Below are positions 1 to 56,907 of a stretch of DNA of 64,000 nt, piece after piece. Source of the stretch: Cyanidioschyzon merolae (taxonomy: Eukaryota); assembly GCA_000091205.1 (NCBI GenBank), contig AP006496.2. One strand, written 5' to 3'. Positions within the stretch are counted from its first letter, which is position 1. Each line of letters starts with the position of its first letter. Below the pieces are notes generated by a model. It saw only the letters and a program-made list of their open reading frames with translations. It was not told the origin of the DNA and ran no database searches. The position numbers were made by a program, and so were the translations under genes.

Positions 1-1150
1 AGTTCGGCTCCGACACAGAATCCACCAACAGAGGCGAGCGAAAACGCCACATCGACGACAACGATGTCGACATCACGACCGAGCTGGAGACCGAAATGTT
101 CGCAAGCACCTCGCCCGGTTGCACCAAGAACACCCATAGAGTGGCTTTCGTCCACAAATAGACGCAAGTTGCTGTGCCGACGCCTCACCGCAGCAAACTC
201 GTCCAATCGAGCAACCATCCCTGTATTTTGATAAATGCCTTCAACGATGATGAACTGACGATGCAGAAGATTTGATCTGCTTTTCGGCTGTGTTGACTCA
301 ATGGCCACAATTTTGCGTTCCAGATCAGCGGGATCATTGTGGTGGAACCAAACAATCATTGCCCGGCTTAACTGCATGCCGTTCTGGAGAGCATAGTGTA
401 AACATTCATCAGCGAAGATAATGTCGCCCTTTTTCGCAAAGGCATTAACAATACTAGTGGAGGTGGCTGACCCGAAACTGTAAAGAATGGCCTCATGTGT
501 ACCCATGAACTTTGCAATTTCGTACTCGCAGCGTAAATGGACATCCATCGTTCCATAAAAACCGCGAGGCCCGCAAGCACCGCAGCCATACTTGAGTAGT
601 ATGCGTCTGCATGCCTCTTCGATTCGTGGTTCCCTCTGGAAGCCCAAATAATTTGCAGACGCAAAGTTCAGACATCGTTTCAGGCCGTGGTCACCGATCT
701 GGACGACACAGTACCCACCGGGCTCGTAGGCATGAACGGTGGGCGCCTCTAGCAGGTCAGATGTCTCGGTGTCTGCGAGTTCACCGCTGCCAAGGGCAAT
801 GGAAACACTCGTACGAACCAGACTTAGAGTCGCTTCGGTCGACGCGCCGTTACGTGGACTCAAAATTGCGGACTCAGTACTCGGAGGAACCAGCGCCTCG
901 GGCGTCCATTCGTCGCAGAGCGCATCGATTTCCTCTTCCGTGAGATCATCCGCGCGCGATTTCAGAGCGAACCGTGCAGCCGCGCGACTCGGCGTGCCAC
1001 GTTCGCGTCGCTGACCCGGTGCATACGCTTTTTGCAGAAAAAAATAGGCAAGAAGCAATGCAAGGCTAATTTCCAAAGCAACGTGAAAGAGAAGAAAGGA
1101 TGTAACCTTTCCCCTGAGCTCGGAGAGAACCGATGAGAGCCATGTGGGAA
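1..1150 (-). CDS. LCB1: serine palmitoyltransferase subunit LCB1 (class II aminotransferase), partial; the C-terminus runs off the window start
   Basis: Manual minus-strand translation (codon boundaries such that 698-700 is one codon) is uninterrupted from an ATG pair at 1150-1145 to position 1: MMELPTWLSS...LEISLALLLAYFFL (N-terminal TM helix)...LTEEEIDALCDEWTPEALV...QIGDHGLKRCLNFASANYLGF...LLKYGCGACGPRGFYGTMDVHLRCEYEIAKFMGTHEAILYSFGSATS...GDIIFADECLHYALQNGMQLSRA..WFHHNDPADLE..IVEGIYQNTGMVARLDEFAAVRR..LFVDESHSMGVLGATGRGACEHFGL. This is collinear with the LCB1/SPTLC1 family. It is absent from the ORF track because there is no in-window stop. Confidence 0.8.
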
Positions 1151-2689
1151 GCTCCATCATCCAAGAGAGACCGGGCTAACTGAGAGGCTGCCTGAGCCCA
1201 AAAGCCTCGTCGTCGGGGGCCCGCCTGTGCACCGTGAAAGCAGCGCAGTCGTGCCACTAGCACAACCAAAGGCCGACTCGGCAACACGCGTCACGCAAAG
1301 ACGCCACTGAAACTCTGAAGAAATGCCAATGCCTCTTCGCTATTTCTGTTTCCAGTGAAGAAACTAGAACGTTGTGTGCAACGTTGTGCCGCCACTACCA
1401 GTGAGACTCAGAGTTCCCGCCTCGCCATCCGAACCCTGAGACGCATCCAGACGTGTCAAGCCAGAAAACAGCGACGTAGTCATACTTTGTACTGAAAAGT
1501 GTCCTTTGAATCCACGCACCATCACCCGCCGCGTATCGGGTCTGAGCGCTAAAGTCTGACGGTGCTCGGCGCAACGGCAACAGATGCGTGGTCATGGCGC
1601 CGGGAGCGGCACGCCTAGTGGCGAGTCGTGCATCCGCTAATCTTGGTACCGAGCAAATGCCACTTATGAACGGGCGATCGAGTCGGTGACCACTGTAGGC
1701 CGCGCGAGCGCAGTGTTTCGGCAACAGCAGAGATAACCTCAGTTTTCAATCGGGGGATACGTGCCGGACAGGTTTGGTTGGGGTTGATTTGGGCAATTTT
1801 CGCAGAAAAGTTGGCAAGGAACACATTTCATCTGCGTGCGTTGCAGTAAACTGCAGATCGAGACAAGTCCATGCATCAGACGAGCTCTCCGGAAAGGAAA
1901 GCGATTGCAGGTAGAATCTCGTGTAGAACGATTCGCTGTGCATGCTGAGGCCGAGGACCCGCATTCGAGCCTGTGCAGGGTACGGTGCATATCGAGACGA
2001 CGATCCTGTGCGGTGTGCTCCAGGACAAGTCGGTTTCCCGTGAAGACGTACGAGCGTGATACAGTTTTACCACTCACGCACAAGATCCTATTATTGGTTA
2101 CTCCGCGAACAAATCCATACGAGACTCGGCGACCTGATCTCAGAGCCGTTTCTCATAGTGTGCAGGCAGCTAGAAATCGGCCATATATAGCGAGAGCGCA
2201 GCGAAACGGGAAATGGCCCCAGACAGGTACAATGGGTTGAGTATACGAGCTCGCTGCAGCGCAGCGTGGATCAAACGGATCTTGCGAGAAATAATATTCA
2301 TGCCACAAATCGGAAGTACAATCCGTGAATATTAATATTAGACATGGGGCATAGCATGTGCAACAGATGATGCCAAGCGCCCAGAGTTCGGAATGCGCAA
2401 GCACGGCGTTTCGCTGGGTATCCAATGCATCGAAACCTCTGGTAGGATTCGTTTACAGATCGAATTGGCGTCAGGAAGCAGAGCGCTTGCCGCCCATCAG
2501 GCCGATTTGCGAGGCGTACGACGATGGATCTGCGGGTGCTGTGCCTCTCCTGGTTCGGGGCTCCCGTTCTACTCAGAGCAGCGAATTCTGGACAAGTGTA
2601 CCATGATCCCATCTTGTTGTTGTTTGTTTTCTAGCAGGTATTGAACGCCGGCAGTGTAGAGGATTGGCGAGTGACCTGCCCCAGACGAA

Positions 2690-5150
2690 ACGTCTCCAAC
2701 TGACGTGCCGACGCCTCCGCGTCGATTTGGACCGGCCACCCACTACTGCTTTCAACTTCTTCTCATATAGTTCCACTTTGAGCGGTTATCCAACAAAGCC
2801 CTCTCGTGTCAACTCCGGGCGTCTTCGTTCCACCAGCGCATATCGCCTTAGATAGATAGCGGCGTCAAAGTCTCGGTTCACGAATTCCATCCGTTTCTTG
2901 CCATTGATTGCATACGCCAGTGCAAGCAATCCACGAACTTTTGCCCTCCTTTCCATTTGCTCCTCCGTCAGCGCTCGGTACTTTTTTATATTCTCAGGGC
3001 TCCGCTGACACTTTTCCATCTCCACTCTCTGAAGTGCACACCCCGGTTCGTGGTGTGTATACATTGTTCGGAACTCGTCTACAGGCATCGTAACAATACG
3101 CCGTGCGCACTCCTTGCACGCTCTCGTTGTTGGAGCTGGCGTAGTTCCTTTTTTGGACGCCCAGCGCCCTGCCGCATACGCTCCTACGAGCCTCTGACTC
3201 GCGTCCTATTTGAGGGCGCTCAACTCATTGAAAACGTTCGCGAATGCCCGCTGCCTCCCACAGTATAGATTCATTCGCAAACAATCACACCGGGGCTTGG
3301 TATACTCCTCCCACAGCGCATCCCAATGGGCAACATGAACTTCCATGAATTTCCGAAAAGCTCGAAAGTCCGCTCCCCGGCTCATGACCTCGCTCAAGGC
3401 TTCCAGGTGATCCTTCATTCCTGAATTCCAAGTCTCGATTTTCTTCCTTTTATCATTGTACCGGATTCGCGGTAGTATCTCGCTCGCGAGAATCTCAAGA
3501 GACGCATGTCTTTCTTACGTAAGTTACCGTCAGTACCGTCTTCCGCACGTCTGGGTGCAGCAATGGTGATGATATTCGTATTGCCAGGGTCCGCGCCAAC
3601 GACAAAGTCGTTATCCTGCACTTTCTGCGTGGCAGGATCCGCCTCCTTCTTTTCTTTCTCCTTCGTCATGTCAACGACAAGGTCGTTATCCTCCACCTCC
3701 TGCGTCGCAAGACCCGCCTCCTTCTTTTCTTCATGCTTCGTCGTGCCAACGACAAGGTCGTCATCCTGCATTTTCTGTGTCAAAGGATCCGCCTCCTTCT
3801 CATCTTCATCCTTCGCCACGTCAACGACAAAGTCGTTATCCTCCACCTCCTGCATCGCAGGATCCGACTCCTCCTTTTCTCCATCCTTCGTCACGGGCGC
3901 AGCCGAGGGCGGAACTGGCCGATCTTTCTTCAACCGCCGATAGTGTACACACAAGGCTACTCCATCGGTTTCGATCAACCCAGTGAATACCGTTTGCTTG
4001 CTCACTCTCAGACGTTTGAAATCGAAGATATTCTTCCAGTGGGTCTCCCGGTTTTCGCCGGAGAACTCCTCCCTGCTAACATCGAACTCGGGACTGATCT
4101 CTTTCATGCGGCGTCAAGGACTCTGGAGTCGATACTCACAAAATGTGACTTGAGGTTGCACACTGGAACGCCGTTGAAGCGCTTCCCCATTAGGACAGCC
4201 TTCCGTCTCTCCCACTCTTCATTTTTTCGCCTCTCAGCTTCATCTCCGCCTTGCGTTCGAGTTCTAGATCCAAAAACAAGAAATAGCGCAGAATGTGGCG
4301 ATACCATCTTTCCTTATCTTTTTTCAACTCTGATATCTTTTCTATTGGGTTCGCCAACCCCAGAACCGCACGGCGCTCTTGAATAGCCGCGCGGATTATA
4401 GAATCTTCATTCGTGCTCTCTTTTGACACCTTCTTGTCAACGAATTCGACCTCATTTTCACGCTTGCAATCGTTCGTGATGCCACTGATAATCACCCATT
4501 TTCCTTTGCGAGACAGGCCCGTGTAGAGCGCAAACACGGCGCGTATCATAAAACGTTCCAGGGTCATTGTAGAATGGTTCTTCAGATTCTTGAGGTATTT
4601 CATCGCTCCGTGTGTGTAAATATCCCGGTCACCCTTGTATCGAGTACCGTTGAAGCTCTAGAAGGGGTATGTTTTTGTGGAGGGCATGCACTAGCTCATT
4701 TTCCCGCCGCGCTTCCCCTGTACAAAGCGTCAGGCGTCGAATAAAGGTCATGTGGAAAAACCAGTCCGGAACCTCGCCTATTTTGATGTCCGTAACGTCA
4801 TCGTACATCTCCCTCGCCGCATGCATCAGTTCTAAAAAAGCCTTACGAACAGTCCTGGATTACAATTCGACACTGTTTCTGATGGCCTCTTGCAACTTTT
4901 GCCTGCACGGATCCTTGATGTGGCGTAGAAAACAGGCTTTCATCATCCTCTCATCTTACTGGTGTCTCACTTCTAGCTCCTTCTCGCCATGCCATGCCGT
5001 ACTCGTGCATGGAACAAGGCCCCCAGCGATTGTAGACGCTCCGAAAGCAGCATCGCGTGTTTCTAAGCATGTCAAGTTATGGCCTGGATCGCGTTTCCCA
5101 GCAACGGCGAGATGCGCGTTTTGTCCGGTTGTTGCCAGATCTCCAGGCGC
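2690..5150 (-). mobile_element. Fanzor/TnpB-like element copy F1 (degenerate; ORF broken into at least 5 pieces by frameshifts)
   Basis: Minus-strand ORF pieces 2786..3088 (RuvC-III NRDFDAAIY, RGLLAL), 3206..3418, 3415..4107 (Ruv[19 protein letters not shown] preceded by 4 x 25-aa acidic repeats), 4190..4603 and 4629..4826 (N-terminal domain) are collinear with the 750-aa consensus from copies F3/F5. The 3' noncoding tail is truncated relative to other copies. The 5' UTR motif ggatcgcgtttccc..gatctcc lies at 5085-5150. Confidence 0.7.
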
Positions 5151-13698: not shown

Positions 13699-13920
13699 AC
13701 ACGAGCTAGAGAAACGTGATCCGCCAAGCGTGCAAAGTTAATCGACGCCACGAGCCTGCGCAGCGACGTTGCAAATAAGGCTTTTCGACTAAAAACAAAA
13801 ACAGGAAACGTATTATACAAGATATAGAAAAACAGAAGCCGACGGAGGGTGCACCGTCGACGTACCGAGCTCAAGATTCCAGCGCACGATCGCATCTCGC
13901 GAATCTTGTCACCACCGCCT

Positions 13921-15850
13921 ATCTAAAGACGCGTCGCCGGCGGTGCGCAGTACTGGTGGCGAACGCGCCTTAGACAAATCGTCTCCAACTGACGTGCCGA
14001 CGCCTCCGCGTCTATTTGGACCGGCCACCCACTACTGCTTTCAACTTCTTCTCATATAGTTCCACTTTGAGCGGTTATCCAACAAAGCCCTCTCGTGTCA
14101 ACTCCGGGCGTCTTCGTTCCACCAGCGCATATCGCCTTAGATAGATAGCGGCGTCAAAGTCTCGGTTCACGAATTCCATCCGTCTCTTGCCATTGATTGT
14201 ATACGCCAGTGCAAGCAATCCACGAACTTTTGCCCTCCTTTCCATTTGCTCCTCCGTCAGCGCTCGGTACTTTTTTATATTCTCAGGGCTCCGCTGACAC
14301 TTTTCCATCTCCACTCTCTGAAGTGCACACCCCGGTTCGTGGTGTGTATACATTGTTCGGAACTCGTCTACAGGCATCGTAACAATACGCCGTGCGCACT
14401 CCTTGCACGCTCTCTTTGTTGGAGATGGCGTCATTCCTTTTTTGGACGCCAAGCGCCCTGCCGCATACGCTCCTACGAGCCTCTGACTCGCGTCCTATTT
14501 GAGGGCGCTCAACTCATTGAAAACGTTCGCGAATGCCCGCTGCCTCCCACAGTATAGATTCATTCGCAAACAATCACACCGGGGCTTGGTATACTCCTCC
14601 CACAGCGCATCCCAATGGGCAACATGAACTTCCATGAATTTCCGAAAAGCTCGAAAGTCCGCTCCCCGGCTCATGACCTCGCTCAAGGCTTCCAGGTGAT
14701 CTTTCATTCCTGAATTCCAAGTCTCGATTTTCTTCCTTTTATCATTATACCGGATTCGCGGTAGTATCTCGCTCTCGAGAATCTCAAGAGACGCATGTCT
14801 TTCTTACGTAAGTTACCGTCAGTACCGTCTTCCGCACGTCTGGGTGCAGCAATGGTGATGATCTTCGTATTGCCAGGGTCCGCGCCAACGACAAAGTCGT
14901 TATCCTGCACTTTCTGCGTGGCAGGATCCGCCTCCTTCTTTTCTTCCTCCTTCGTCATGTCAACGACAAGGTCGTTATCCTCCACCTCCTGCGTCGCAAG
15001 ACCCGCCTCCTTCTCATCTTCCTGCTTCGACGCGCCATCGACAAGGTCGTTATGCTGCACTTTCTGTTCTGTGTGGCAGGATCCTCCTCAATGTTTTCTT
15101 CATCCTTCGTCACGGACGCAGCCGAGGGATGGACTGGCCGATCTTTCTTCAACCGCCGATAGTGTATACACAAGGCTACTCCATCGGTTTCGATCAACCC
15201 AGTGAATACCGTTTGCTTGCTCACTCTCAGACGTTTGGAATCGAAGATATTCTTCCAGTGGGTCTCCAGGTTTTCGCCGGTGAAGTCCTCCCTGCTAACA
15301 TCGAACTCGGGACTGATCTCTTTCATGCGGCGTCAAGGACTCTGGAGTCGATACTCACAAAATGTGACTTGAGGTTGCACATTGGAACGCCGTTGAAGCG
15401 CTTCCCCATTAGGAAATCCTTCCGTCTCTCCCACTCTTCATTTGCCTCTTCACTCAGCTTCATTTCTGCCTTGCGTTCGAGCTCTCGGTCCAGAAACGCG
15501 AGGTACCGCAGGACGAGGCGATAGTATCTTTCCTTATCTTCTTTCAACTCTGATATCTTGTCTGTCGAATCCGCCAACCCCAGAACCGCAGGGCGCTCTT
15601 GAATAGCCGCGCGGATTACAGAATCTTCATTCGTGCTCTCGTTTGACGACCTCTTGTCAAAGAATTCAATCTTATCTTCATGCTTACGATGGTTCGTGAT
15701 GCCGTTGATAATCGCCCATAGCCACTTGCAAGAGATACCCTGGGTACAGTGCAAACACGGCACGTATCATAAAACGCTCCAGGTTCACGATCATATGATT
15801 CTTCAGATTCGTGATGTGCGTACTCGGCCTGTCACAATTTACTCTGGCAT
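13921..15850 (-). mobile_element. Fanzor/TnpB-like element copy F2 (5'-truncated, multiple frameshifts)
   Basis: Minus-strand ORF pieces 14075..14452 (CxxC-like region, RGLLAL, NRDFDAAIY), 14495..14707, 14704..15060 ([17 protein letters not shown] with 3 acidic repeats), 14955..15326 and 15323..15763 are collinear with the F3/F5 protein. The conserved 3' tail is at 13921-14074. The N-terminal ~250 codons are missing, and the copy abuts a partial X/R2 repeat at ~15850. Confidence 0.7.
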
Positions 15851-16240
15851 TAAGAGCGGGCGGCCTGCGTCATGGCGTCGCCCTGGTCCTAACAGACTCC
15901 TAGCACGTCGCTTCACGCTGTTGCAGGCAGCAGATCTGGCTGCCCAGTTGTCAGGCTCCCAGAATGATTACGTATTCCGACTCCGTATCAGGTGAAACCT
16001 TCCTCGATACGACGCCCTCAGTGGTATCGCAAAGCCGTTCTGTGTCCGTTCAGCATTGGCATCAGCGCTACAGGCGCTTTCGCTGGAGCTCAAATCAGAC
16101 ACTCGGGGCACAACAGGACGTACAAAACTACCGGTGTATCCAAAATGATGCATTAGTAATGGGCTTTGATGGTAGATGCGTCATGATGGACGCTTTTTCG
16201 ACTACCAATATCCATCTCGCCGGCTGAGATCCCCGGTCAA
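15850..16240 (+). repeat. X(partial)+R2 short interspersed repeat, copy A
   Basis: 15911-16240 aligns by eye with 42313-42650, 54114-54448 and the reverse complement of 60600-60835. Shared strings: ctcccagaatga, cgacgccctcagtggta, gcaaagccgttctgt, gatggacgcttt..ccaatatccatc. Confidence 0.6.
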
Positions 16241-16409
16241 TGTAAACGAATTTCGCCATCGAAAGAGAATCGATCGCAGCGCCCTGCGGATGCCGCCCCC
16301 CTCCCCTGCGAAATAACATCCAGACAAACATTACGTCTTTTCCCTTCAAAGGGAACACTGGTCCAAGATGCCGACCCTATGCTGATCGCAGAGCAAGCGT
16401 CGAAGGTCT

Positions 16410-25907: not shown

Positions 25908-26000
25908 CGCCGCTCGAAAGTCGAACGGCGCCAACGGTGTACAGTAGTGGCGGCAACCGCGCCCTAGACGAGACGTCTCCAACGGGCGTGCAGACGCCTC
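25908..26000 (-). ncRNA. candidate omega-RNA (fRNA) scaffold region of copy F3: the conserved 3' end of the ORF plus the noncoding tail
   Basis: Sense sequence after the stop, ...ctagggcgcggttgccgccactactgtacaccgttggcgccgttcgactttcgagcggcg, is conserved with copies F2, F4 and F5 and then diverges exactly at the element end. No structure or expression evidence is available. Confidence 0.25.
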
Positions 26001-28318
26001 CCAGTTTGTTTGAACCGGAAACCCACTACTGCTTCCAACTTCTTCTCATATTGTCCCACTTTAAGAGGTTGTCCAAGAAAATTCTCTCGTGTCCACTCTG
26101 GAGGTCTTTTCTCCAGGACCGCACATTTCCTTGTATTGATGGCGGCATTCAAATCTCGGTTCACAAACTCCATCCGTTTCTTCCCATTGGTAGTTGTACT
26201 TCCTAGTGCACCTAGTCCTCGCACTTTCACTCTCCTTTCCATTTGCTCTTCCGTCAGCGGTCCGTACTTTTTCATATCCTCAGGGCTCCGTTGGCACGTT
26301 TCCATCTCGACCCTCTGAAGTATACACCCCAGTTCATGGTATGTATAGGACGTTCGGAACTCACCTACAGGTAGTGTAACAAACCGGTGTGCGCACTCCT
26401 TGTACGTTCTTGTCGTTGGAGCTGGTGTACACAATTTTTGGGTCTTCCATCGCCCCGCCCCATACGCTGCTACGAGCCTCTGACTTTCATCCTCCTTCAG
26501 GGCGCTCAACTGATTGAAAAAGTTGGCAAACGCCCGCTGCTTCCCACAATACAAATTCATTCGGAAACGAGCCCACCGGGGCTTGGTATACTCCTCCCAC
26601 GGCGCATCCCAATGGGCAACATGAACTTTCATGAATTTCCGAAAAGCTTCAAAGTCCGCTCCTCGGCTCGCCACCTCGCTCAAAGCTTCTAGGTCATCCT
26701 TCATTCCTGAATTCCGGCTCTCGATTTTCTCCCTCGCATTCATTATACCCGATTCTCGATTGTATCTCGCTATCGAGAACCTCAATAGACGCATGTCTTT
26801 CCGACGTAAACTACCGTCAGTACCATCTTCCGCACACTTCGGTGCTGCGATGGTGATGATATTTGTGTTTCCGGGGTCCGCGCCAACGACAAAGTCGTTA
26901 TCGTGCACTTTCTACGTCACAGGGCCCGCCTCCTTCTTTTCTTCATGCATCACCGCGTCAACGACAAGCACGTTATCCTCCACCTCCTGCGTCTCAGGAC
27001 CCGCCTGCTTCTTTTCTTCATGCATCGCCGCGTTAACGACAAGGTCGTTATGTTGCACTTTCTGTGTGGCAGGATCCGCCTCCTCCTTTTCTTTATCCAT
27101 TGTCACGGGCACACCCGAGGGCGGGACTAAACGATCTGCCTTCAAACGCCGATTGTGTACTCACGTGGCTACTCCATCAGTTTCGATCAACCCAGTAAAT
27201 ACCGTTTGCTTGCTCACTCTCAGACGTTTGAAATCGAAGATATTCTTCCAGTACGTCTCCCGGTTTTCGCCGGAGAGTTCCTCACTGTTGAAATTAAACT
27301 CGGGACTGATCTCCTTCATGATGCCGTAAAGGACGCCTGAATCGATACTCACCAAATGTGACTTGAGGTTGCACATTGGAACACCGTTGAAGCGCTTCCC
27401 CATTAGGAAAGCCTTCCGTCTCCCCCACTCTTCAGTGTTTTCCTCACTCAGCTTTATCTCCGCCTTGCGTCCAAGTTCTAGATCCAGAAACAAGAAATAG
27501 CGAAGAATGAGGCGATAGTGTCTTTCCTTATCTTTTTTCAACTCTGATATCTTTTCTGCTGGACTCGGCAGCCCCAGTACCCCACGGCGCTCTTGAATAG
27601 CCGCACGGATGACAGAAGTTTTACACCTTCTCCTGCGTGACGCCTTCTCTCCGACGAATTCGATCTCATCTTCATGCTTGTGATCGTTCGTGATGCCATT
27701 GATAATCGACCATACTCCTTTGCGAGACAGGCCCGGGTACAGCGCAAACACGGCGCGTATCATGAAACGTTCGAGGTTCATCGTCAAATGGTTCCTCAGG
27801 TTCGTGAGGTAATTCATTGCCCCGTGTTCGTAAATATCCCGGTTACCAATGTATCGAGTGCCCTCGAAGCGGAATTCCGCGAAGTTTTCGTGGAGGGCGT
27901 GTACCCGCTCATTTTCCCTCCGCGTTTCCCTTGCGCCGAGCATCAAGTGACGAACAAAGATATTGTCGAAAAACTCGTCTGGAATCTCGACTGTTTCCAT
28001 GTGCGTCACATCGCGATACATCTCCCTCGCCATACGCATCAGTCCTGAAGACGCCCTGACAATACTCTTGGAGTACGAATCGAGACGTTTTTTGATAGCG
28101 TCTCGCAACTTTTCCCTGTACGGATCCTTGATATGTTCAAGAAGACCGGCTTTCACCACCATATCGTCGTACAGTTGTCTTTCTTTCCGCCTTCGACGTA
28201 GGGCCTCTCCCCTTTGCTTCTTCTTCTCTTCCTTTTCTACTCGACTCGGCACTGTTTTTTGTTTTTTTCTAGCAGCCGGCGACCCTGGGCCTCCAGGATC
28301 GTCGACTTGCTTTTTCAT
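25964..28318 (-). pseudogene. Fanzor1-like TnpB-family RuvC nuclease gene of copy F3 (about 750 codons, 2 frameshifts)
   Basis: N-terminus is basic (KKQKTVPSRVEKEEKKKQRGEALRRRRKERQ). RuvC-I is [17 protein letters not shown] (D at 26878-26876). The Zn-finger-like region is YKECAHRFVTLPVGEFRTSYTYHELGCILQRVEMETCQRSPE. RGLGAL follows. RuvC-III is FVNRDLNAAINTRKC (D at 26155-26153). Confidence 0.7.
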
Positions 28319-28572
28319 AGGTTTCCTTTTTTTTTAGTTTTTTGAAAAAGAACGCTCTTTGAACCCTTATGTAATATACTGCGAACAAACACTTGACTAG
28401 ACTTATTTGAGGGTGAAACACAAATGAACTCAAAAACTGTACTTTGCTACGACTTTAACGCAAATAAAACTTGTACAGTAGAGCAGTGCGCTCCTGATCA
28501 GGATCGCGTTTCCCTTCAATGGCGACATGCGCGTCGTGTCAGGTGACTGCCTGATCTCCCGGGTGCGCTCAC

Positions 28573-29150
28573 CGAGCGCGATTTTTAGAATGGACAAAAC
28601 GTTTCCTTGTGCCAGCGTTCTCCGATTGTGCGCATTTTTCTTTTCTTTCTCTCTTTTTGTGTTTTTTTCAGTGCGCGGTGAGGTATCCATCAACCCCCTA
28701 CCTCCATGTTACATTACCGATACTTCATCGCGGATATTCTGGTCGTTTCATACGTCCTATGATGTGTGCCTAGTACCTGCCGTGCCGTACCCGCCTTTGG
28801 ACCTTAACAGCTGGGGCAGATAGTTCATAGAGACAGAACGGCTTTTCCATACCACAGAGGGCGCCGGCTCGAGGCGTGGTTTACCCGACGTAGAATTGGG
28901 TGTCGCCGTCAGTTTGTGCTCAGACAGTCTGCGGATGCAGGTTTGTCTTCGCTGCACGAAACGCTGGAGACACTTGGCTGTTAGGATATATCGTGGGAGC
29001 CGCCTCTCTCTTTCGTGATCATGCATGGAATGCGTTGTTGTCGGTTGGCAATGTGGCTTCGTGCTTGACACCCACCCACCACTGTGGGTAGGCGCAGAAA
29101 GCACTGGGCCCGTGTGCGCATCCGATTCGCTAGACCTTCCGCCTAGAAGG
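28573..29150 (+). repeat. R3 interspersed repeat (~590 bp), copy 1
   Basis: Near-identical by eye to 48990-49575. The first ~150 bp (gccagcgttctccgattgtgcgc..polypyrimidine..cagtgcgcggtgaggtatccatcaaccccctacc) are also at 60420-60600. Confidence 0.7.
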
Positions 29151-30386
29151 TAGCATGTGAGTTTCTTCGCCACTAATGAGCGCTGAGGCTCGGTTAGCGG
29201 ACCATAAGTTGCCAGTGCTACACTCAGAGTGAGTGTCCGGTCTTCGACTATCACGATGATGCCCAGCTGCTGGTGTCCTCCAAGGAGCTCGCTGCGCTCC
29301 TGCTTCCAGCGCGGGCACTGTAAGCCTAAATATGTCAGCGTCTCGGGGATCTCGTCTCGACAGCAGGGACAGTGTGATTCCCAGTGCGATTCCAGTGTTC
29401 CTATACGGCTTAGAGACGGTGCTGGTAGCCAGAAGCCACCAACGCGGATTTTGGCGAGCCACTGGGTACCTCGAGCAAGTCCCGGGAATTCCAGCGCCTC
29501 CTACCAGTGCCTGCATGTGTATGCTAGGTTGTAGTTCCGGTATAGAGTCAAGCCGGCGTTAAGGGCGCGACTGGTACCGTGTCTACGTTCCCATATTGTT
29601 GTTTGGACCGTTCGCTTCAGGCGGTGGGAGCCTTCTACATTTCTGGGGAACGATTCGAGCGCATTTTCGCCTAAGAGGCGCTTCAACCAAATATGCGTCC
29701 ATTTCATCCTTCTTGCGACGCACCTACCGGTACCGAGTACGTCTCGAGCCTCGTACGCGCTACCGCGGCATATGCCGACCTGCCTCTCTCTCTTCAGTGC
29801 AGAGCGGAGGACTCGACGCTGGACCTCTTAACGACACCGAAAGGCGCTGCTGTTGCTTCTGGGGAAGCACCCGCGACTATCCGTCCAACGGTCCGTACCA
29901 GAGACGTTTGGCACTAGCCCCTAGCGCACTGACAGCTTCGTGCTGCTTGCCGGGTTCGTTATTCGGGCTGCCGAGCGTTTCGGGACGGTAGTCACAGCGA
30001 GCGCCTCCGCTGAGGCAGTTTCACGCTCTTGGGGAAGGGGCGCGCACTTTGCAGGTCGCCAACGTGTCCAGCGTCAAGCCCAACGACTGAACTGCCGTCG
30101 ACTGAGTCGCACACGTACACATGCTCACTGGGACATCAGCGCCTTTCGCCGCTTTGGACTGAGGCTTTGGCGGCGTTTACTACCCGAGTCGGAGAAAAGT
30201 GCGGCGGGTCCGTGAATACTGGGCGGTTTATTGCAGCACTTGACCAGGGAGAAGGGTTGCAGTGAACAGCAGCACGCTACGACTACTGCGCAAAGCTGTT
30301 CGCGCGCGTCTGGTAGCGCTTCCAAGTTGTGTCGAGCGCAGCATAGGCACGAAGCAACGACCCCAAAACGGACGCCCTGAACCTGC

Positions 30387-30701
30387 ATGGAGTCTGAAGA
30401 CGAGCTTCTGCCGAGCGTCCCCGCGGTACTGGTGGACGAGTCGAGCCCCGGCGCGTTCGCGGAACTGGCGAACGAGAAGGCGCGCCTCGAGTCTCGGAGA
30501 GCGCTGCTTCAGCGAGAACTGGAACGACTACAGGCGCCTGTCCTTCAACAAAGCCCCTACTACAGAGAACGTAGAGCTTGTTGCTTGAGAATGCTGGAGA
30601 TCATTGACGTGAGCATCGCACAACTGGATTCTGGGATGCACGCGCCAGCAGCGTTGAATGCTGAACTGGAGACCCTGTTTCAGAGCTTGCATATCGACTG
30701 A
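30387..30701 (+). CDS. hypothetical small coiled-coil protein (104 aa), speculative
   Basis: ORF with heptad-like LLQRELERLQAPVL..LETLFQSL. No family recognised. Confidence 0.15.
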   Translation: MESEDELLPSVPAVLVDESSPGAFAELANEKARLESRRALLQRELERLQAPVLQQSPYYRERRACCLRMLEIIDVSIAQLDSGMHAPAALNAELETLFQSLHID

Positions 30702-31435
30702 GCGTTGCGGGCTCGTGCCAGCACACGCCACCTACTCGATAGCGCAGTGAGATGCGCACTTTATCCGGGGTCGCAGTCCTGGAGGCGTCATGCGCGCACA
30801 CACACAACCACACAACACCGGGATACTGTGTGTAGCAGCTACAACCCGTGATCAAAGTCTAGAATACCTGGCATACGGTCATGCCAGAGTATCCATGCGC
30901 TCCAAGTCGGGTTCGTATGGAGCCAGACGCGGCGTCGCTCGCCCTGCAGACAGTGAACGACCAGTATACTGGCTGGAAACGCTGCAAGTCCACGTCGACG
31001 CCGCCGGTGTTCGCCGCACTCGGCACATCGCTGCAGCACCAGAAGGGATTCGCTTTGGTGCGTCCGACGGGGATAGCGCACACGGCGCTCTGGTCTCGAT
31101 CCTGTATCCCTTGGATCAAGGGCAAAAAACGCGGTATGACGTTATCGAGCAGCGCTAGGAGAGCAGCCATGGCGAGTGCGAGCCCCCAGCCGCCCGCAGC
31201 CCGTGAACCTGCCCTGTTGGATCGGGTACGCAAGCACCGCGAGGAGACGGCTTGCCGAGAGCCCCCGCTGCAACATGCTCGATGATCGCGCTACAGAGAG
31301 TGAGCACACACACCTCGTCGATGTGGATGTGCATCGAGCGACGCTCGTACTGTCGTCCGCGCTTCCACGTACATGCGGCTGCCTCGTATCCGGACGATGA
31401 ACGGCGAGCGGTAGGCTTCCCGATCCCCTATCAAC

Positions 31436-37882: not shown

Positions 37883-40800
37883 TGTAAGATAATTCGGAGC
37901 AGGCGTGAAGTGGCCCTGGTCGAGCCTGATACTCCTTCAGGTGCGTGCCTCGAAGAACGGAGTTTATATTAGAACTTGCGGATCGGTGCGAAGAGTCGGT
38001 TGCAAGAGCGTACACGACTCGAGCGCCACAAACGAGCGCGGCGCACCCGAGTGCCTGCACCTGCACTACCGCGACCCGCGCCAGCGAAGTTTTTATGCTG
38101 TAGAATTATTGAGGAGAATCGTAGAAGTAAGCGTGCCTGCACCCGTGATGTTTTTGATGCGATAGGCTCGTTGAAGAGAGTCTGAGGCGTGCAGCTGCCC
38201 TCCGCTCACAAGAATCGAGCGGTATTCCACGAGCGCCTCTGTCGATGGCGCGCGATGTTGCCGCCCATGCGGGCACATCAACGACCTCAGGCTCGATTTG
38301 GCGTGCGCGCGCGCTCGTAGCGCCAGCGGGGCGTCTATGCGCAATGCTATCGACTGAAGGAACACTTTGATGGTCTACCACTTGTACTGGAATACTTCTC
38401 CGACTCTATCTATAGATATATGCGGTGCTTGATGTTCTATGGAGTGTTGAGGGCACCATGAACGTGCCTGGATCCGGACGGAATACTATGCAATGCATAT
38501 TGGGCACTGATTTTTCCAACGAGAGTTTGGAGCGTTGCAGCGCAGCGTCTGCATCAGTAAGAGTCGCTTCCCTGGCAAGCTCGCTCGACGTAAAGCCGGT
38601 GGACGATCTGGAAGCACGAGATATTGCCTGAGGTTGATCGAGGGGTTCAAGTCTCGATGCAGTATGGACGGGTATGTGTGTGTACTTGCTGCTGGCGTCA
38701 CGACGCAGCGAGCCTCACGCCTTTGATTGCCGCTGCATCTCATGGTCGAGCGGCTTACCGTACGCCATCTCGTGCGTCTGTCTCTGTTTCGCTCTCTGAT
38801 TCTCTACCGGATTCGGCACGCGCCCGTGCTCATGACACGTGTATGCCGTCCTGAACACATCGGCGGGCATCGTGCAGCGCGCATTTCTGTATTTACTTCT
38901 GTATTTCGGCATGCTCATTGCATGAGCAGGCGTCCAGCATTTCTGCGTTATAGCGCGCCCTGCTCCATGGGTTACCTATCAAAGAAAACTGAGCAGCTTC
39001 ATCTGCTTCGCACTGAGGCCTTCGGCTCCGTCCCCGCGCTCTAGACGCACAGCGAAGGCCATGGCGCTATCTGACCTGGGAATCACGCGCACAGCGAAGC
39101 CTTTCCCCGCATCTAGCTTGAACAGTTGGAAATGCGTCGCGCTGCCCGAAAGGATACTTTTCGGCACCTGCGCTGTCGAGGTCCCGTTCAAGGACGTGGT
39201 GCGTCGACCTTTCAAGGTATTCTGCGGGCTGTAGGTGCGAGTCTCTGACCCGACGCTCAGGCCGTGTTGCGGGTTTTGTTCCGGGCTTCATTCACGCTGT
39301 CCCTCGGGGAGGGTTCAGCCATAAAAAGCGCAGAGCAATGTGGACAGCTGGCAGCCCTGCGCCCGCAACACGTACGCATTGTTGGTGAACGAGCTGCGTC
39401 ACAGCGCGCGAAACTGAGAGAGTCCTCATCGAGTGCGAAGCAACGCGACGCCATTTGGCGACCTGTATCTCGCTTTACTGAATATTCTCCCTGCTAATGT
39501 GTCTTTGCAGGGAGGCGTCGAGAGTGGTTCCGGCGTCATGCGCCCGATCCGTGAGCTTTTCCTTCCTGTCCCTGCACATCCTCTTCGTCTGAGGGATCCT
39601 CCTGCTCGTGGCGGAGCGGCCTCTTCGCCTTTGCGTCCGCTCGGCTGCGCGCGCCTTGAGCGCTTTCGAGTAAGGGGGCGCATCGTACCCAACGATCAAC
39701 CCAGAAGAATGCGTGATAGAGACGCAACGGAGCGCTTCGACGGAGTATGAGGTGCTGAACGAAGCCGTCTGCTTGGCGATCACTAGGTGGCTCGGCAATG
39801 AAGTCGCCTCTGGGCCTGATGGTGTCGGAATGCTCGCTTATTTGTGCTTTGGGATCCGTCGTTCGCGCCTCGTTGGGTACCCTTGTGCGGGTCCACCATC
39901 GCTCCCGAACAAGTCCCTTTGCGGCGTTATACGGAAATCGAGCACCTCATGTGAGAATCATTGGCGCCGCAGTGCGAAATCGATAAATTGTGTCGTTCAG
40001 CACGAAACAGTCTCCCATACAAGTGCATTCCCTTCTGTATCCGTCTGTGTCTCTTCGGAGCAGCTCGTACCGACGGTACGGCATCATCACAGTCGATGAC
40101 TGCTTCCGTGGAATTCCGTATCGAAGAAATGGAGTGGCATAAATTGACGAGGAGACACACTGATCAACACAGGGTTTGGTACCGTCCGCATTGAGTGCGA
40201 ATCGTTCATCATGCAGAATACGAGTGGGTAGCTGCATCCAGCCGCTGACCCTGGACTGGCTGACTTGTACAAATCATGTCGCCTTTGGTACACCAGCACT
40301 GACACCATAGAAACTTTACGCCAACTCTCTCCAATCGATAGGCTCCATTCTCTTTGTCTTAGGCATGCGACAACCATGGATAAAGACGAAACCTGACCTG
40401 CTGGTACAGTTGGTACAAAATTCGCTGCTCGGATTATATCGATGATGCGCTGTGTGCCGAGGACAAGGTGCGCGGACATTACCGGCTGCCGCTGTGGTCA
40501 CTGCAAGCACCCGCTCATAGCTATGCACCCGCTCGAGTCAAGCATGTGTGGTTCACGCGTCATCGCTTAGGAACGAATATTTCATCGTCGCTGCATTATA
40601 TCGCAGGAGATCGATATCACGATGCAACTGACCGTATAGATCGTAGACGAATTGACTCCAGGATATATTCTTTACTGAATAGTTCAAGGAGGATTGCGTC
40701 CCTTTTTCAGATCAGTCATGCCATAGGACGCAGATGATTGAGGAACACTGTAAGGAACCAGTATATGCGATCTGCGTCAAAAACCGATATTTTTAAAGAC

Positions 40801-41399: not shown

Positions 41400-42010
41400 G
41401 AAACGCAGTGATCGCTCCACTGGGTGAATCGCTGAAGCGTTCAGCACACGCTGGCACAACGGAGCACATAAAATCTTCCTTCTGCATGTGCGTCTGTCTC
41501 TGGGAAGGTCAGCACCTAAGGGCATAAACAAGGGCGTTCGTTTGAATACATTAAAAAATCCAGGGAAAGTTATGGACTCGGAAGTCCGAGATGTTTGAGG
41601 CCCGGTGTTGCCAGCTGCCGGATAAAAAACGGAAAGAATCCTTTTCTCGACAAACATCAAGCGAACAAGAGTATGTGACGAAGAAGAAAAAGAAAAGAGG
41701 GGACACAGCACAGCAAAGATGTTTGGCCGACGGGATAGTGACGATCCTGTTATGTCACAGAGGACACGAGTTCGAGGAATCCTTGCTTTGGTGAGTTCCA
41801 CCAGCGGCAATAAACGCATGAAGTTCGTGAACCGAGAATTCAACGTCACCATCAGGATCAGACGATCTGCGGTGCTAAACACGGGGACCGAGGACCCCGG
41901 GCGATTTAACTTCATGGGGCAGCCTCTCAGACTCGACTTGTACCCAGATAATTCGAAATCGATAGCAGACGGCCGGTCCAGGAAAAGCTGGGAGACGTCG
42001 GTGTAAGTTT
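41400..42010 (+). pseudogene. Fanzor/TnpB-like fragment F7 (C-terminal RuvC-III region only, truncated on both sides)
   Basis: ORF 41719..42006 encodes RVRGILALVSSTSGNKRMKFVNREFNVTIRIRR...GQPLRLDLY, a degenerate RGLLAL and NRDxNAAINI region. There is no conserved 3' tail. X/R2 repeat copy B starts at 42030. Confidence 0.5.
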
Positions 42011-42029: not shown

Positions 42030-42650
42030 GAACAGAAACTAACCATTCACTATCAACTCGATAACAATTTCTTCCCTGCTCTACCGTACACGTTTACAAG
42101 GGGAAAAGATTTCCGTATTTTCGAAAGCTTTCCTTCTAAGCGGAAGGTCCCGCGAGCCGGACGAGTCTGATGGGCTCGTGCTCCGTGCACCTCTGAAGTG
42201 CCCGGTGCTATAGTGAGGCCTGAACAGCTCCTCCGCAACGCACTATATTCTGGGACCAGGAGCAGGTAGGATGCATCCAGGTGTCGCCATAATCACAGAG
42301 GTCTCCGGGAATATCGCTTCGCGCTGTCGCAGGAAGTAGGCCTGTCTGCGCAGTTTGCAGACCCCCAGAATGCTGACAAGTCTGAATTCCGTATCGGATG
42401 AACCAAGCATCAAACCGACGCCCTGAGTGGTATGGCAAAGCCGTTCTGTCTCCGTGCAGCATCTGCTTCAACGGCATACGCGCGATTGCGGATGCAGCAA
42501 GACAGGTACCCGGCGCACGATCGAGCGTACATAACGACCGGTACATCCGAGAGGAACTATGGATCAGGGAACTTGCAAGTAGGTTGCAGCATGAAGGATG
42601 CTTTCTCGGTAACCAATATCCATCCCACAATCTGCGATCCATGGTCCAAG
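42030..42650 (+). repeat. X + R2 composite short repeat, copy B
   Basis: 42030-42312 (X: aacagaaactaaccatt...cccgcgagccggacgagt...) matches 53815-54113. 42313-42650 (R2) matches copies A, C and D. Confidence 0.65.
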
Positions 42651-48989: not shown

Positions 48990-49575
48990 TAAATATATCA
49001 TTAGGTATCTATATGCCACCACAGCAGCACGTTCGGATTTTTTCGCTGACAAAACGTTTACTTCGGCCAGCGTTCTCCGATTAAGCGCATTTGTTTCTTA
49101 CTTTTTTTGTGGTTTTTTTCAGTGGGCGGTAAGGTGTCCATCAAACCCCCGACCTCCAAGTTACATTGCCGATACCTCTTCTCGGATATTCCGGTCGTTT
49201 CATACGTCCCATCGGGTGTGCCTAGTGCCTGCCGTTCCGTATCCGCCTTTGGACCTTAAATGCTAGAGCAGATAGTTCATAGAGCTAGAACAGCTTTTCT
49301 ATACCCGAGAGGACGTCGGCTCGAGGCGTGCTTCACCCAACGTAGAATCGGGTCTCGTCGTCAGTTTGTGCTCGGACAGTCTGCGGATGCAGGCTTGCCT
49401 TCGCTGCACGACACGCTGGAGAAACTTGGCTGTTAGGATGAATGCTGGGAGCCGCCTCTCTCCTTCGTGATCATGCATGGAATGCGTTGTTGTCGGTTGG
49501 CAATGCGGGTTTGTGCTTGACACCCACCACAGTGGGTAGGCGCAGAAAGCGCACTGGCCCCGTATGCGTATCCGA
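48990..49575 (+). repeat. R3 interspersed repeat, copy 2 (no adjacent Fanzor gene)
   Basis: Aligns along its full length with 28573-29150. It lies ~280 bp upstream of the start of the minus-strand Dim1-like gene. Confidence 0.7.
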
Positions 49576-49905
49576 TTCGCTGGACCTTGCGCCCAGAAGG
49601 TACCCTTGATGCCGATGCGCGTCGCGCACATTAGCATAAGCGCATAACCTGGACAATCCGACACCATCCACCATGCAAGCTGCGGAAGGCAGTTTGGTGG
49701 CGCCATTCGTGCCAGAGGCGCTGCTGCGCTTTCGGTTGCGCGCGCTGGCCATCGAGGTAGCGCGAATGCTCGCCAAAGTGCGCGCACAGCTCGCGCAACG
49801 GAATCCTGTGTGGGGTGTAGCGAATTCTCCCCCCCAGGTACCGCTACGCTGCTGCACTGAGGTCGACTCCAAAAGGGTGCCTGTTGGAGGCGTGAACCGC
49901 CATCA

Positions 49906-51285: not shown

Positions 51286-51400
51286 CGCCTTAAAAGTCGA
51301 ACGTCGCCGGCGGCCGTGTACAGTAGTGGCGAGAAACCCGCCCTAGATAAAACGTCTTCAGCTGACGTGCAGACGCCTCCCAGCTTTTTTGGACAGGCTA
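51286..51400 (-). ncRNA. candidate omega-RNA scaffold region of copy F4
   Basis: Sense tail after the stop, agacgttttatctagggcgggtttctcgccactactgtacacggccgccggcgacgttcgacttttaaggcg, is conserved with F2, F3 and F5 up to the last base and then diverges. Confidence 0.25.
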
Positions 51401-53790
51401 CCTACTACTGCCTCCAACTTTTTCTCATACAGCTCCACTTTGAATGATTGCGCAACAAAGTTCTCTCGTGTCAACTCTGGAGGTCTTCTTTCCACCACGG
51501 CACATCTCCTTATATTGATAGCGGCGTTAAAGTCACGATTCACAAACTCCATACGTTTCTTGCCATCTTTGTTTGTACACAGTAATGCGAGTAGTCCACG
51601 AGCTTTCGCCCTGCTTTCCATTTGCTCCTCCGTCAACGCTCCGTACTTTTTTACATCCTCAGGGCTTCACTGGTACTTTTCCATCTCCACTCTCTGAAGC
51701 GTACAACCCACTTCATGGTGTGTATACGACGTCCGGAACTCATCTACAGGTATCGTAACGAGATGCCTTTCACACACCTTGTGCGTTCTTGTAGCTGGAG
51801 CTAGCCTAGTCCCTTTTTCCCACGCCTACCGCCCTGCCCAATACGCTTCTACTAGCCTCTGACTGTCGCTCTCCTTCAAGGCGCTCAACTCATTGAAAAA
51901 ACTCGTGAACGCACGCTGCCTCCCACCGTGTAGATTCATACACAACCGAGCCCACCGGGGCTTTGTATACTCCTCCTACAGCGCCTCGCAATGAGCAACA
52001 CGAACTTCCATAAACTCCCGGAAAGCGTGAAAGTCCGCTCCCCGGCCCGTCACCTGGCTGATCGCTTCCAGGTGCTCTTTCAATCCTGCGTTCCACGCCC
52101 CACTTTTCTTCCTTTATTCATTACACTGAATTCTCGGTAATATCTCGTTCTTGAAAGCTTTAAAACACGCATGTGTTTTTGACGTAGGTTGCCGTCGATG
52201 CCATCATCCCCGCAATTGCGTGTTGTGATGGTCATGATATTCGTGTTCCCAGGGCCCGCGCCAACGACAAAGTGGTTCTCATGCACCTCCTGCTTCGTGG
52301 GGCTAGCCTCTTTGTTTTCTTCACGCTTTGCCAGCGACGGCAACGAAGACAGAACTGGACGATCCGCCTTCAAGCGCCGATAATGTACACGCATGGCTAT
52401 CGCATCACTTTCGATCATCCCAGTAAAGTCCTTTTTCTTGCTCGTTCTGAGACGTTTGGAATCGAAGATATTCTTCTTCCAGTACGTCTCCTGGTTTTCA
52501 CCGGTGAACTCCTTGTTGCTTACATCGAACACTGGACAGATCTCCGTAATGATGCCGTAAGGGATTTCGGAGTCGATACTCACAAAATGTGACTTGATGT
52601 TGCACAACGGAACGACGTTGAAGCGCTTCTCCAGAAGCGCAGCTTTCCGTTTCTCCGTCACTGCATTTGCTTCAACACCCTGCTCCATATCGGTCTTGCA
52701 TTTCAGTTGTCGGTTCAGGAATATGGTATAGCGCAAGATGAGGCGATCGTATCTTTCCGAATCTTTTTTCAACTCTGATATCTTTTCTGCTGGACTCGCC
52801 AGCCCCAAGACCACACGATGCTCTTTAATAGCTGCACGGATTACAGAATCCTCATTTGCTCTCCTGCGTGATGTCTTCTCGTGAACAAATTCGATCTACT
52901 GTTCATTCTTACTATCGTTTGTGATGCCATCGATGATGGTCCATATCCCTTTGCGAGAGGGGCCCGGGTAGCGCGTACAGACGGCGCGTATCATGAAACG
53001 TTCCAGGTTCATGGTCAAATAGTTCTTCAGGTTCGTGAGGTGCTTCATAACCCCGACGGTGTAAATACGCGAGTCACCCCTGTCTCGAGTACCGTTGAAG
53101 CGGAATTCGGCGTAATTTTCGTGGAGGGCATGCACCCGCTCATTTCTCCTCGACGTTTCCCCTGTACCAAGCATCAGGTGACGAATAAAGGTTTTGCCGA
53201 AAAATTCTTCCAGAACCTCGACTGTTTTGATGCCCGTTGCGTCGTCGCGCATCTCCTTCACCAAATGCATTATACCTGCAGAAGCCATCATAACACTCAT
53301 GGAGTCTGACTCGATACGGTTTCTGATGGCCTCTCGCAGCTTTCGCCGGGACGGATCCTTGATATGTGCGAGAAGACAGGTTTTCACCACCATCTGGTCG
53401 TACTGTCGTGTTTCGTTCAGCTTCTGACCTCGGGCCTCCCTCTTTTGCTCCATCGTCTTCTCATGTTCCTTTTAGCTCCGCCATGTTTTTCCTTAGTCTC
53501 CGGCAGTCGACGACACCAGATGTCCAGGATCCTCCAGTTTCTTTTCCACAACTTTTTCATTATTTTTGAAGAAGAAGAAGGCTCTTTCAACGCTTCTGAT
53601 ATGAATCGCTAAAATTGATTTGAATACACTAACTTGAGGTTTGAAACACAATTGCATTAAACAACTTTAATTTGTTACGACTTTAACGCAAATACAACTT
53701 GTACGGTAGAACAATAAGAAAACGGATTTTCACAATTTCGCGTTTCCTTTCAACGGCGACACGTGCGTCTTGTCTCGTACGACCTGATCT
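51286..53790 (-). mobile_element. Fanzor/TnpB-like element copy F4 (full length, frameshifted)
   Basis: Minus-strand ORF pieces 51358..51636 (RGLLAL..FVNRDFNAAINIRRCAVVE), 52080..52814 ([14 protein letters not shown] with a single acidic repeat unit) and 52896..53453 (N-terminal domain, starting MEQKREARGQK...). The conserved 3' tail is 51286-51357. The 5' UTR (gactttaacgcaaatacaacttgtac, cgcgtttcctttcaacggcgacacgtgcg...ctgatctccccggcgcgc) ends at ~53790, where repeat X begins. Confidence 0.75.
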
Positions 53791-53814
53791 CCCCGGCGCG
53801 CTAACCGACCGCAG

Positions 53815-54448
53815 CATACAGAGCAAAGAACAGAGACTAACCATTAACTAGCAACGATATACCAATTTATCTTCCCTGCACGATAAACGATAAAAAGGAA
53901 ACACGATTCCCGTTTTGTCGAAAGTTGAATTTCTCGACGGAAAAACCCGCGAGCCAGACGAGTACCCCAGGCACGTGCTTCGTGCTCGCCTCCCAGTGGC
54001 GGGTGCTGCACTGAAATCTGAGCAATTCGTCTGCAGCACTGTTTATTCTGGTACTAGCGGCAGTTAAACTGCATCTGGGCGTCGATCCGGTCGCGGTGGA
54101 GTCCTAGTATAGAGCTTCACGCTATCGCAGGCAGTGTGTCTGTCTGCGGAGCTTGCTGGCTCCCAGAATGATCCTATACTCCAACTCTGTGTCAGGTGGA
54201 GCATTCCTCGATCCGACGCCCTCAGTAGTACGGCAACGCTGCTCTGTATCTGTGATGCATCGGCATCAGCGGATTAGACGCTAAGGCGGGTGCATCAACG
54301 CATGCACCCGGCGAATGACAGGAAGCACGAGACGAGTAGTACATCTGAAAGGAAGTATACGTAATGGAATCTGGAGTTAGAATGCAGCATGATGGACGCT
54401 TTCGCTGAATCCGATACCCATTTATAGCACAATCTGGGATCCATTGTC
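53815..54448 (+). repeat. X + R2 composite repeat, copy C, lying between the head-to-head Fanzor copies F4 and F5
   Basis: 53815-54113 matches 42030-42312. 54114-54448 matches R2 copies A, B and D. Confidence 0.65.
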
Positions 54449-54802
54449 AATATAAGTGTTTTTCCATCGGAAAAATGAAGCGTGTAGCTCTAACGTACAA
54501 ATTGTAACGATGTTCAAGTCGTAGAAAAATACATTGTTTGTCCTCAATCGTGTTTCAACCTTCACTCTAGTGTATTCAAGTGCTTTTTCGTGCGTAATAG
54601 CTGTCCCATCCAAAGTGGTTTCGGTTTTTATATTGAAAAAGGAAAGTTACGGAAGTGGAAGTGTAGGATCCTGGGCGTCAATGTCGCCGGCAGCCCGAAA
54701 AAACGAAGAACAGTGCCAAGTGCAAAGGAACAGGATAAGAAGAAGAAGTAAAAGTGGAAGGCCCTACGTCAAAGGCTACACAAAAGACGACGGTACGACG
54801 AG

Positions 54803-56838: not shown

Positions 56839-56907
56839 TGTCTAGTCTGGGGCGCGGCGATCGCCACTACTGTACCACTGGCGACAGCGTTTTTCTTTTG
56901 AAAGGCG
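56740..56907 (+). ncRNA. candidate omega-RNA scaffold region of copy F5
   Basis: After the stop at 56836-56838: tgtctagtctggggcgcggcgatcgccactactgtaccactggcgacagcgtttttcttttgaaaggcg. This is conserved with the other copies and diverges at 56908. Confidence 0.25.

Follow-up and report, generated by a model that had tools for sequence, protein, structure and literature searches.

Reading Frame and Lesions of F3

The window under study, i.e., the whole stretch of 64,000 nucleotides from contig AP006496.2 of the Cyanidioschyzon merolae assembly GCA_000091205.1, holds copies of a transposable element (TE) which are assigned below to the Fanzor1 family CMe-1A and are referred to as F1 to F5. Two of these, F3 and F5, are the subject of this work, each of which had been described in a first reading of the window, made from its letters alone (the sequence-only reading), as being two lesions away from a full-length open reading frame (ORF) for a Fanzor-type nuclease. 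The host is documented by the neighbouring Cse1 ORF, whose product is identical in 1016 of 1016 residues to XP_005537205.1 of C. merolae 10D. A trypanosomatid host was considered as well, but genes alternate between the strands, which made it doubtful, and the Cse1 matches to cyanidialean algae decided against it. The 3169-bp CMe-1A consensus and its 734-residue protein, both taken from the supplement of Bao & Jurka 2013 (PMC3627910), served as reference. The following features were identified for F3:

25908-28590, minus strand: F3, a CMe-1A copy covering consensus positions 638-3169 and lacking the first 637 nucleotides, which resemble TE-N2_CMe
25964-28318, minus strand: Fanzor1 pseudogene of F3, a single frame of 785 codons which starts with ATG, ends with TAG and is free of frameshifts but interrupted by two nonsense codons
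27161-27163, minus strand: lesion 1, codon 386 changed from the consensus TGT (Cys) to TGA, located by alignment in a WED beta-strand of the structure model of homologue P0001
26878-27102, minus strand: acidic tandem repeat, three units of 75 bp (25 codons) which are 79-83% identical and free of insertions or deletions (indels) (Tandem Repeats Finder, repeat search)
26912-26914, minus strand: lesion 2, codon 469 changed from the consensus CAG (Gln) to TAG, within the last repeat unit and 12 codons before the RuvC-I Asp
26876-26878, minus strand: RuvC-I Asp codon (D481, GADPG motif), intact
26360-26362, minus strand: RuvC-II Glu codon (E653, GEFRTS motif), intact
26153-26155, minus strand: RuvC-III Asp codon (D722, NRDLNAAIN motif), intact

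Three minus-strand ORFs of 385 (27161-28318), 77 (26912-27145) and 314 (25964-26908) amino acids make up the coding region of F3, and their starts are congruent modulo 3. One-frame translation from 28318 to 25964 revealed exactly two internal stops, in the contexts GVAT*VHN and GPVT*KVH. The sequence-only reading had reported the outer two ORFs to be open, which they are at the very coordinates it gave, and had counted two breaks between them, which holds true as well; their type requires correction, as both breaks are nonsense substitutions (TGT to TGA and CAG to TAG) and not frame changes. The further claim that the breaks are confined to the repeat applies to TAG only, since TGA sits 59 nucleotides outside of it (58 intervening bases). 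As compared to the consensus, the sole indels of F3 are two in-frame insertions of 75 bp, i.e., extra repeat units. A reassignment of stop codons was considered and rejected, because host genes in the window terminate with TAA, TAG and TGA, and among the stop-creating changes no bias resembling repeat-induced point mutation was evident. In F3, two nonsense substitutions interrupt what is otherwise one open frame, in which all three catalytic codons are retained.

The 75-bp acidic tandem repeat that had been noticed earlier is real and comprises three units in F3. One unit is present in the consensus, and five and seven units were found at the corresponding locus of two strain contigs (L008 and L009, see below), so that between one and seven units occur among copies and strains, with all changes being in frame. 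Taken as units of 25 codons, the F3 repeat occupies 26876-27100, and its last unit ends with the RuvC-I catalytic Asp, whereby each unit duplicates the strand leading into this residue (DFVVGAD as compared to DLVVNAA and VLVVDAV). The equivalent region of the AlphaFold model of P0001 is a disordered linker with a predicted local distance difference test (pLDDT) score below 50. The repeat is suggested by this model to encode a disordered acidic linker just ahead of the RuvC-I strand, which would tolerate in-frame changes in copy number and would have had no part in the inactivation of F3.

Lesions of F5

The damage identified in F5 is listed below:

54649-54651, plus strand: lost start codon, ATG changed to ACG
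54664-54751, plus strand: N-terminal lesions, i.e., TAG at 54664-54666, 1-bp deletions near 54675 and 54698 and TAA at 54749-54751
55049-55051, plus strand: in-frame stop, TGA at consensus codon 135 (AGA)
55518-55530, plus strand: frameshift, 1-bp deletion at about 55524 in an A-run of 6 A as compared to 7 in the consensus

The reading frame of F5 moreover ends four codons early with TGA at 56836-56838. With a lost start, three frameshifts and at least three premature stops, F5 carries at least seven lesions; its equivalents of the catalytic residues D481, E653 and D722 are intact. The TGA at 55049-55051 had been recognized correctly before, and from position 54803 onwards there is indeed one frame change, its position being about 55524 and not 55570-55600, which is the range of ORF overlap. 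The count of two lesions was obtained by starting from an internal ATG at 54803 (consensus codon 52) and missed the N-terminal damage.

The Same Lesions in Other Strains

Orthologous loci were obtained as syntenic contigs of independent metagenome assemblies of related strains, which were retrieved by exact protein matches to the neighbouring genes. Two contigs, L008 and L009, cover Cse1 together with the F3 orthologue and the helicase, and over F3 their identity to the window is about 97.7%. Both TGA and TAG of F3 are identical in L008 and L009, and in both contigs the TAG-bearing repeat unit itself has been duplicated. Additional, private damage was found at these orthologues: both contigs have lost 1 bp at ORF position 226, L008 has a second 1-bp deletion at position 111 and L009 a new stop. 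For F5, the TGA is common to L086 and L087 and the A-run deletion to L086, L087 and L088. Both N-terminal 1-bp deletions and the TAA are found in L086 and L087, the TAG at 54664-54666 in L086 only, and the orthologues in L086-L088 carry further private indels, including a 1-bp insertion. Independent evidence confirming the lesions, as the sequence-only reading had asked for, is provided by these orthologous loci of other strains; by sequence comparison, the lesions are fixed in the species lineage and older than the split of the sampled strains, with decay of the orthologues continuing. The 10D genome is reported to be a finished Sanger assembly (Nozaki et al. 2007).

The F3 orthologues differ from the window by 2.2-3.6%, as compared to 0.6-1.2% at the intergenic positions 29161-31435 (L008, L009), and the F5 orthologues by 3.4-3.5%, as compared to 0-0.6% at 57518-58141 (L086, L087). 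The TE orthologues are hence three to six times more diverged between strains than the flanking unique DNA. This excess may be due to gene conversion between the paralogues, of which there are about 150, to a chimeric assembly of repeats from short reads or to mutation targeted at TEs.

History of Selection

Between F3 and the consensus 288 substitutions were counted in 2202 ORF sites, with only one stop in the aligned part, when a neutral simulation led to the expectation of 10.9 +/- 3.2 stops and not one of 2000 runs yielded one stop or fewer. Pooled over F3, F4 and F5, seven indels are found in 6615 nucleotides of ORF versus 22 in 1521 nucleotides of non-coding element (Fisher p = 3e-11), and pairwise ratios of non-synonymous to synonymous substitution rates (dN/dS) between paralogues range from 0.32 to 0.63. 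From the stop deficit, the indel deficit and a dN/dS of about 0.4 it follows that most of the F3 divergence arose under purifying selection and that F3 died late. The recent inactivation considered in the sequence-only reading is thus supported, in the sense of being late relative to the overall divergence. Between orthologues, the corresponding ratio of proportions (pN/pS) rises to 0.53-0.76 versus 0.07-0.13 for Cse1, whereby the Nei-Gojobori method underestimates pN/pS when transitions dominate.

A survey of 52 near-full-length copies, taken from the window plus 71 metagenome loci, revealed none that is free of lesions, and F3 was identified as the least damaged of them. Second least damaged, and with the longest uninterrupted ORF, is the P0001 locus (L001 6001-8259, L015; a cluster of 22 members), which possesses an open frame of 819 codons over consensus residues 11-699. 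The protein called at this locus has no ATG start and ends about 35 residues early, with all RuvC motifs kept, and its long ORF (752 amino acids) recurs in several metagenome contigs.

The CMe-1A Family and Its Copies in the Window

CMe-1A was described by Bao & Jurka 2013 (Mob DNA 4:12, PMC3627910) as a Fanzor1 family of C. merolae with about 150 copies, each sharing about 80% identity with a consensus of approximately 3 kb, without terminal inverted repeats (TIRs) and with an undetermined target site duplication (TSD). Despite this identity of about 80%, some copies still encode an intact protein, and a long-lasting coding capacity was noted (PMC3627910). The nucleotide identity of F1 to F5 to the CMe-1A consensus is 83-88% (blastn, pairwise alignment), with 85-88% for F3 over consensus positions 638-3145, 85% for F5 over 735-3169 and 83% for F4 over 1-3169. 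Judged by these alignments, F1 to F5 are members of the published family. Besides F3, the copies are:

2646-4977, minus strand: F1, 5'-truncated, consensus 1034-3145, four frameshifts and five stops
13916-15832, minus strand: F2, consensus 1399-3169 with an internal deletion; consensus 1-423 is found at 15835-16261
51286-54469, minus strand: F4, full-length, consensus 1-3169, one frameshift and seven stops
54479-56907, plus strand: F5, consensus 735-3169

F4 and F5 face each other head to head, their 5' ends (54469 and 54479) being separated by 9 bp, an arrangement also found in contig L086, which carries an F5 orthologue. No TIRs joining the two ends of F3 were found, and the consensus ends are not complementary. 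The first 635 or so nucleotides of the CMe-1A consensus constitute a TE-N2_CMe-like module, which also occurs, in copies or fragments, apart from Fanzor ORFs at 28591-29160, 49048-49602, 60469-60754 and 42030-42646; one inverted copy of it directly adjoins the F3 5' end. The 5' ends of the family are heterogeneous in that, of about 55 surveyed Fanzor copies, only about 10 possess this module, and those without it change over to other 5' sequences around consensus positions 638-690. Fragments which are more diverged (40-49% identity as protein or about 75% as nucleotides) and stem from the same Fanzor element or from a related one locate to 61143-61988, 41530-41876 and 38549-38969. Taken together, at least five Fanzor copies plus fragments account for about 20% of the 64 kb, and about 150 copies of about 3 kb would amount to roughly 3% of the 16.5-Mb genome. 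Scans of the window for tRNAs and with Rfam were both empty.

Assignment to Fanzor1

No significant Pfam match was obtained for the F3 and F5 ORFs or for the CMe-1 homologues P0001, P0002 and P0023, and neither F3 in a phmmer search nor a narrow family profile matched any PDB sequence. A search of protein databases yielded 25 relatives, all of them from JGI metagenomes, and an exhaustive profile search 2414 cluster representatives of a wider family, for which Pfam DUF8286 has been precomputed. In an alignment of 74 sequences from this wider family, DPG, E and RDxNAAxNI are nearly invariant. The profile built from it matched only three distinct PDB sequences, all of which are Fanzor1 proteins (PpFz, 9.5e-23; SpuFz, 1.1e-15; GtFz, 5.7e-11), whereby this match was obtained only after the profile had been widened with the representative search. 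Further, 15 of the 74 members match Pfam PF07282 (Cas12f1-like TNB domain).

The AlphaFold model of P0001, which is 69% identical to F3, reached a pLDDT of 84.3 and a predicted template modelling (pTM) score of 0.81. When compared with the PDB by Foldseek, its top seven matches were all Fanzor1 structures (E 2.6e-16 to 1.7e-13, template modelling (TM) score up to 0.73), with Cas12 and Fanzor2 as weaker matches. The assumption that the copies encode a Fanzor-type nuclease is borne out by these profile and fold matches. The CMe-1A family is thus assigned to Fanzor1, its membership being supported by profile matches and predicted-fold matches to solved Fanzor1 structures only. A zinc ribbon (CxxC...CxxC) between RuvC-II and RuvC-III is common in TnpB and Fanzor, though it is debatable whether it defines them. 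At this site, the CMe-1 consensus reads HHELGC-x9-C and F3 YHELGC-x9-C, conserved Cys pairs being absent from the consensus of the wider family; the published Fanzor1 set nevertheless includes CMe-1 (Bao & Jurka 2013, PMC3627910). One distant member of the wider family, P0025 (contigs L002-L005; 32% identity), lies directly downstream of a DDE_3 (Tc1/mariner-type) transposase gene.

The 3' End and a Candidate Omega RNA

Downstream of the pseudogene, F3 ends with a short non-coding stretch:

25908-25963, minus strand: 3' non-coding end of F3 with the terminal hairpin CGCCGTTCGA-CTT-TCGAGCGGCG, a candidate right end or omega-RNA terminal stem

Altogether 33 distinct CMe-1A 3' ends stop sharply at ...GAAAGGCG or ...GAACGGCG (...GGCG), i.e., in the window at 25908, 13916, 51286 and 56907 and at 29 other loci. 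The flank that follows this terminus begins almost always with TT, often with TTNG. According to minimum free energy folds, the terminal hairpin occurs in two register-shifted versions, which are linked to a 3-nucleotide deletion, and covariation counts for a two-hairpin structure drawn by hand were weak. For characterized Fanzors it was reported that the omega RNA derives from the transposon end, that the 3' flank constitutes the guide and that the target-adjacent motif is located 5' of the target (Saito et al. 2023, PMC10432273). The sharp 3' terminus together with the TT flank could be relevant to the CMe-1A target site or TSD.

Interpretation

Considering the above, F3 and F5 are with high probability non-functional pseudogene copies of CMe-1A, a Fanzor1-encoding TE family of C. 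merolae. The intact protein is suggested, from the profile matches, the predicted fold and the analogy to characterized Fanzors, to have been an omega-RNA-guided RuvC endonuclease of the TnpB/Cas12 type carried by the element, with WED, REC and RuvC domains and a C-terminal nuclease-lobe insert as predicted by the model. It may have cleaved DNA by means of a guide RNA made from the 3' end of the element, as is the case for SpuFz1, GtFz1 and PpFz1. F3 is a copy that died only recently and belongs to a lineage that had long been active.

Several findings weigh against this interpretation or parts of it. The fold evidence comes from the P0001 model, i.e., from a homologue and not from F3 itself, and the clade is devoid of the CxxC zinc ribbon of characterized Fanzor1 proteins, so that nuclease activity of CMe-1, even of an intact protein, is only inferred. 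As to the guide RNA, no omega RNA could be outlined at the 3' end: RNAalifold gave -5.8 kcal/mol for 26 3' ends with no covariation term, hairpin energy z-scores ranged from -1.8 to +0.55, and the conservation profile along the element has no peak at its 3' end. Finally, the orthologue pN/pS of 0.53-0.76 is below 1, a value resting on small counts (8-22 synonymous changes), and would formally leave room for a weak residual constraint on the orthologues.

An origin of the stops and the frameshift from sequencing or assembly errors in the repeat, which would turn F3 and F5 into functional Fanzor genes as the sequence-only reading had considered, is next to inconceivable. It would fit the low number of F3 lesions and the location of one of them inside the tandem repeat, but the F3 lesions are base substitutions, when errors in repeats would be expected to take the form of indels or collapses, and F5 is also without a start codon. 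Above all, the identical lesions locate to syntenic loci of strains that differ by 0.2-1.2% in flanking unique DNA, with TGA and TAG of F3 being present in two and TGA and the A-run deletion of F5 in two to three independent assemblies. Assembly error is excluded because identical lesions occur at orthologous syntenic loci of independent strain assemblies; the lesions being shared with the orthologues, F3 and F5 are therefore not functional Fanzor genes, and the proposal that they would be if the lesions were errors is refuted. Replication slippage in the variable 75-bp repeat had been named as another cause for the break of the F3 frame. The copy number of the repeat is truly variable (one, three, five and seven units), but the frame of F3 is unchanged, each unit corresponds to 25 codons so that every expansion is in frame, TGA lies outside the repeat and both lesions are single-base substitutions. 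Slippage is excluded on these grounds, repeat length having changed by in-frame 75-bp steps only, and its probability is just as negligible.

It is further very improbable that F3 is still made as protein, be it by stop-codon readthrough or recoding, or in the form of two separate fragments, one N-terminal (385 amino acids) and one C-terminal, whose function would be domesticated or split. The otherwise fully open frame, the intact catalytic codons, the ATG kept by the 385-residue ORF and an orthologue pN/pS of 0.67-0.76 instead of 1 would agree with such expression. Against it, L008 and L009 carry frameshifts within the N-terminal ORF and an extra stop, hence neither the full frame nor the 385-residue ORF is conserved among strains. 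Moreover, no in-frame ATG is found between TAG and the RuvC-I Asp, conserved host genes of the window end with TGA and TAG, and the pN/pS, for which 8 versus 19 changes were available, cannot be told apart from neutrality. Somewhat less remote, though still rather unlikely, is the idea that the dead copies matter as RNA or DNA in that their intact 3' ends supply omega RNAs or transposition signals in trans to a Fanzor made elsewhere, an idea which is compatible with F3 and F5 being pseudogenes. The sharply defined terminus common to 33 distinct copies, the terminal hairpin kept in both registers, the TT flank and the long-lasting coding capacity of the family (PMC3627910) are in its favour, against which stand the 3' end being no more conserved than the rest of the element, the weak covariation and folding z-scores and the lack of an intact protein source among the 52 surveyed copies.

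Going beyond the pseudogene assignment, F3 may tentatively be regarded as a fossil that could be reverted at merely two codons (TGA to TGT and TAG to CAG) to an active omega-RNA-guided nuclease. This would imply a Fanzor1 lineage without zinc ribbon that was active until shortly before the strain split, with an intact master copy being present now or until very recently; it is a possibility with the odds against it, and if true, the lineage was hosted by the minimal genome of a thermoacidophilic alga. Already known from the publication of 2013 are the family, its being Fanzor1 and the persistent coding capacity of old copies. What is new relative to this report (PMC3627910) is the precise nature of the lesions, the fact that strains share them and the polymorphism in repeat number. 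As the best-preserved among the 52 copies, F3 offers a template for resurrecting a Fanzor1 from a thermoacidophile, and it provides a clean example for the use of strain-shared lesions to rule out assembly error.

Comparison with Known Systems

The copies of the window and the published CMe-1A share the same host genome, the same organization of the 734-residue ORF, the absence of TIRs and 83-88% identity. What distinguishes F3 from the consensus, namely two extra 25-codon repeat units, the absent 5' 637 nucleotides and its being a pseudogene, is nothing categorical. Among structurally characterized proteins, SpuFz1, PpFz1 and GtFz1 (PDB 8GKH, 9CEU-9CF3; PMC10432273, PMC11423790) are the best whole-length structural matches and significant profile matches of CMe-1, with which they have in common the RuvC triad and the motif order FTGxIxTDG (WED), DPG, E-x-x-TS and RD-x-NAA-x-N. 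Their identity to CMe-1 is 13-14%, and the CMe-1 clade differs in lacking the CxxC...CxxC zinc ribbon between RuvC-II and RuvC-III and, unlike these three proteins, possesses a disordered acidic repeat linker before RuvC-I. Bacterial TnpB (IS200/IS605, IS607) and Cas12 share the split RuvC domain with CMe-1, which in contrast is found in a eukaryotic host, has a much longer N-terminal half and is encoded by an element without a TnpA partner.

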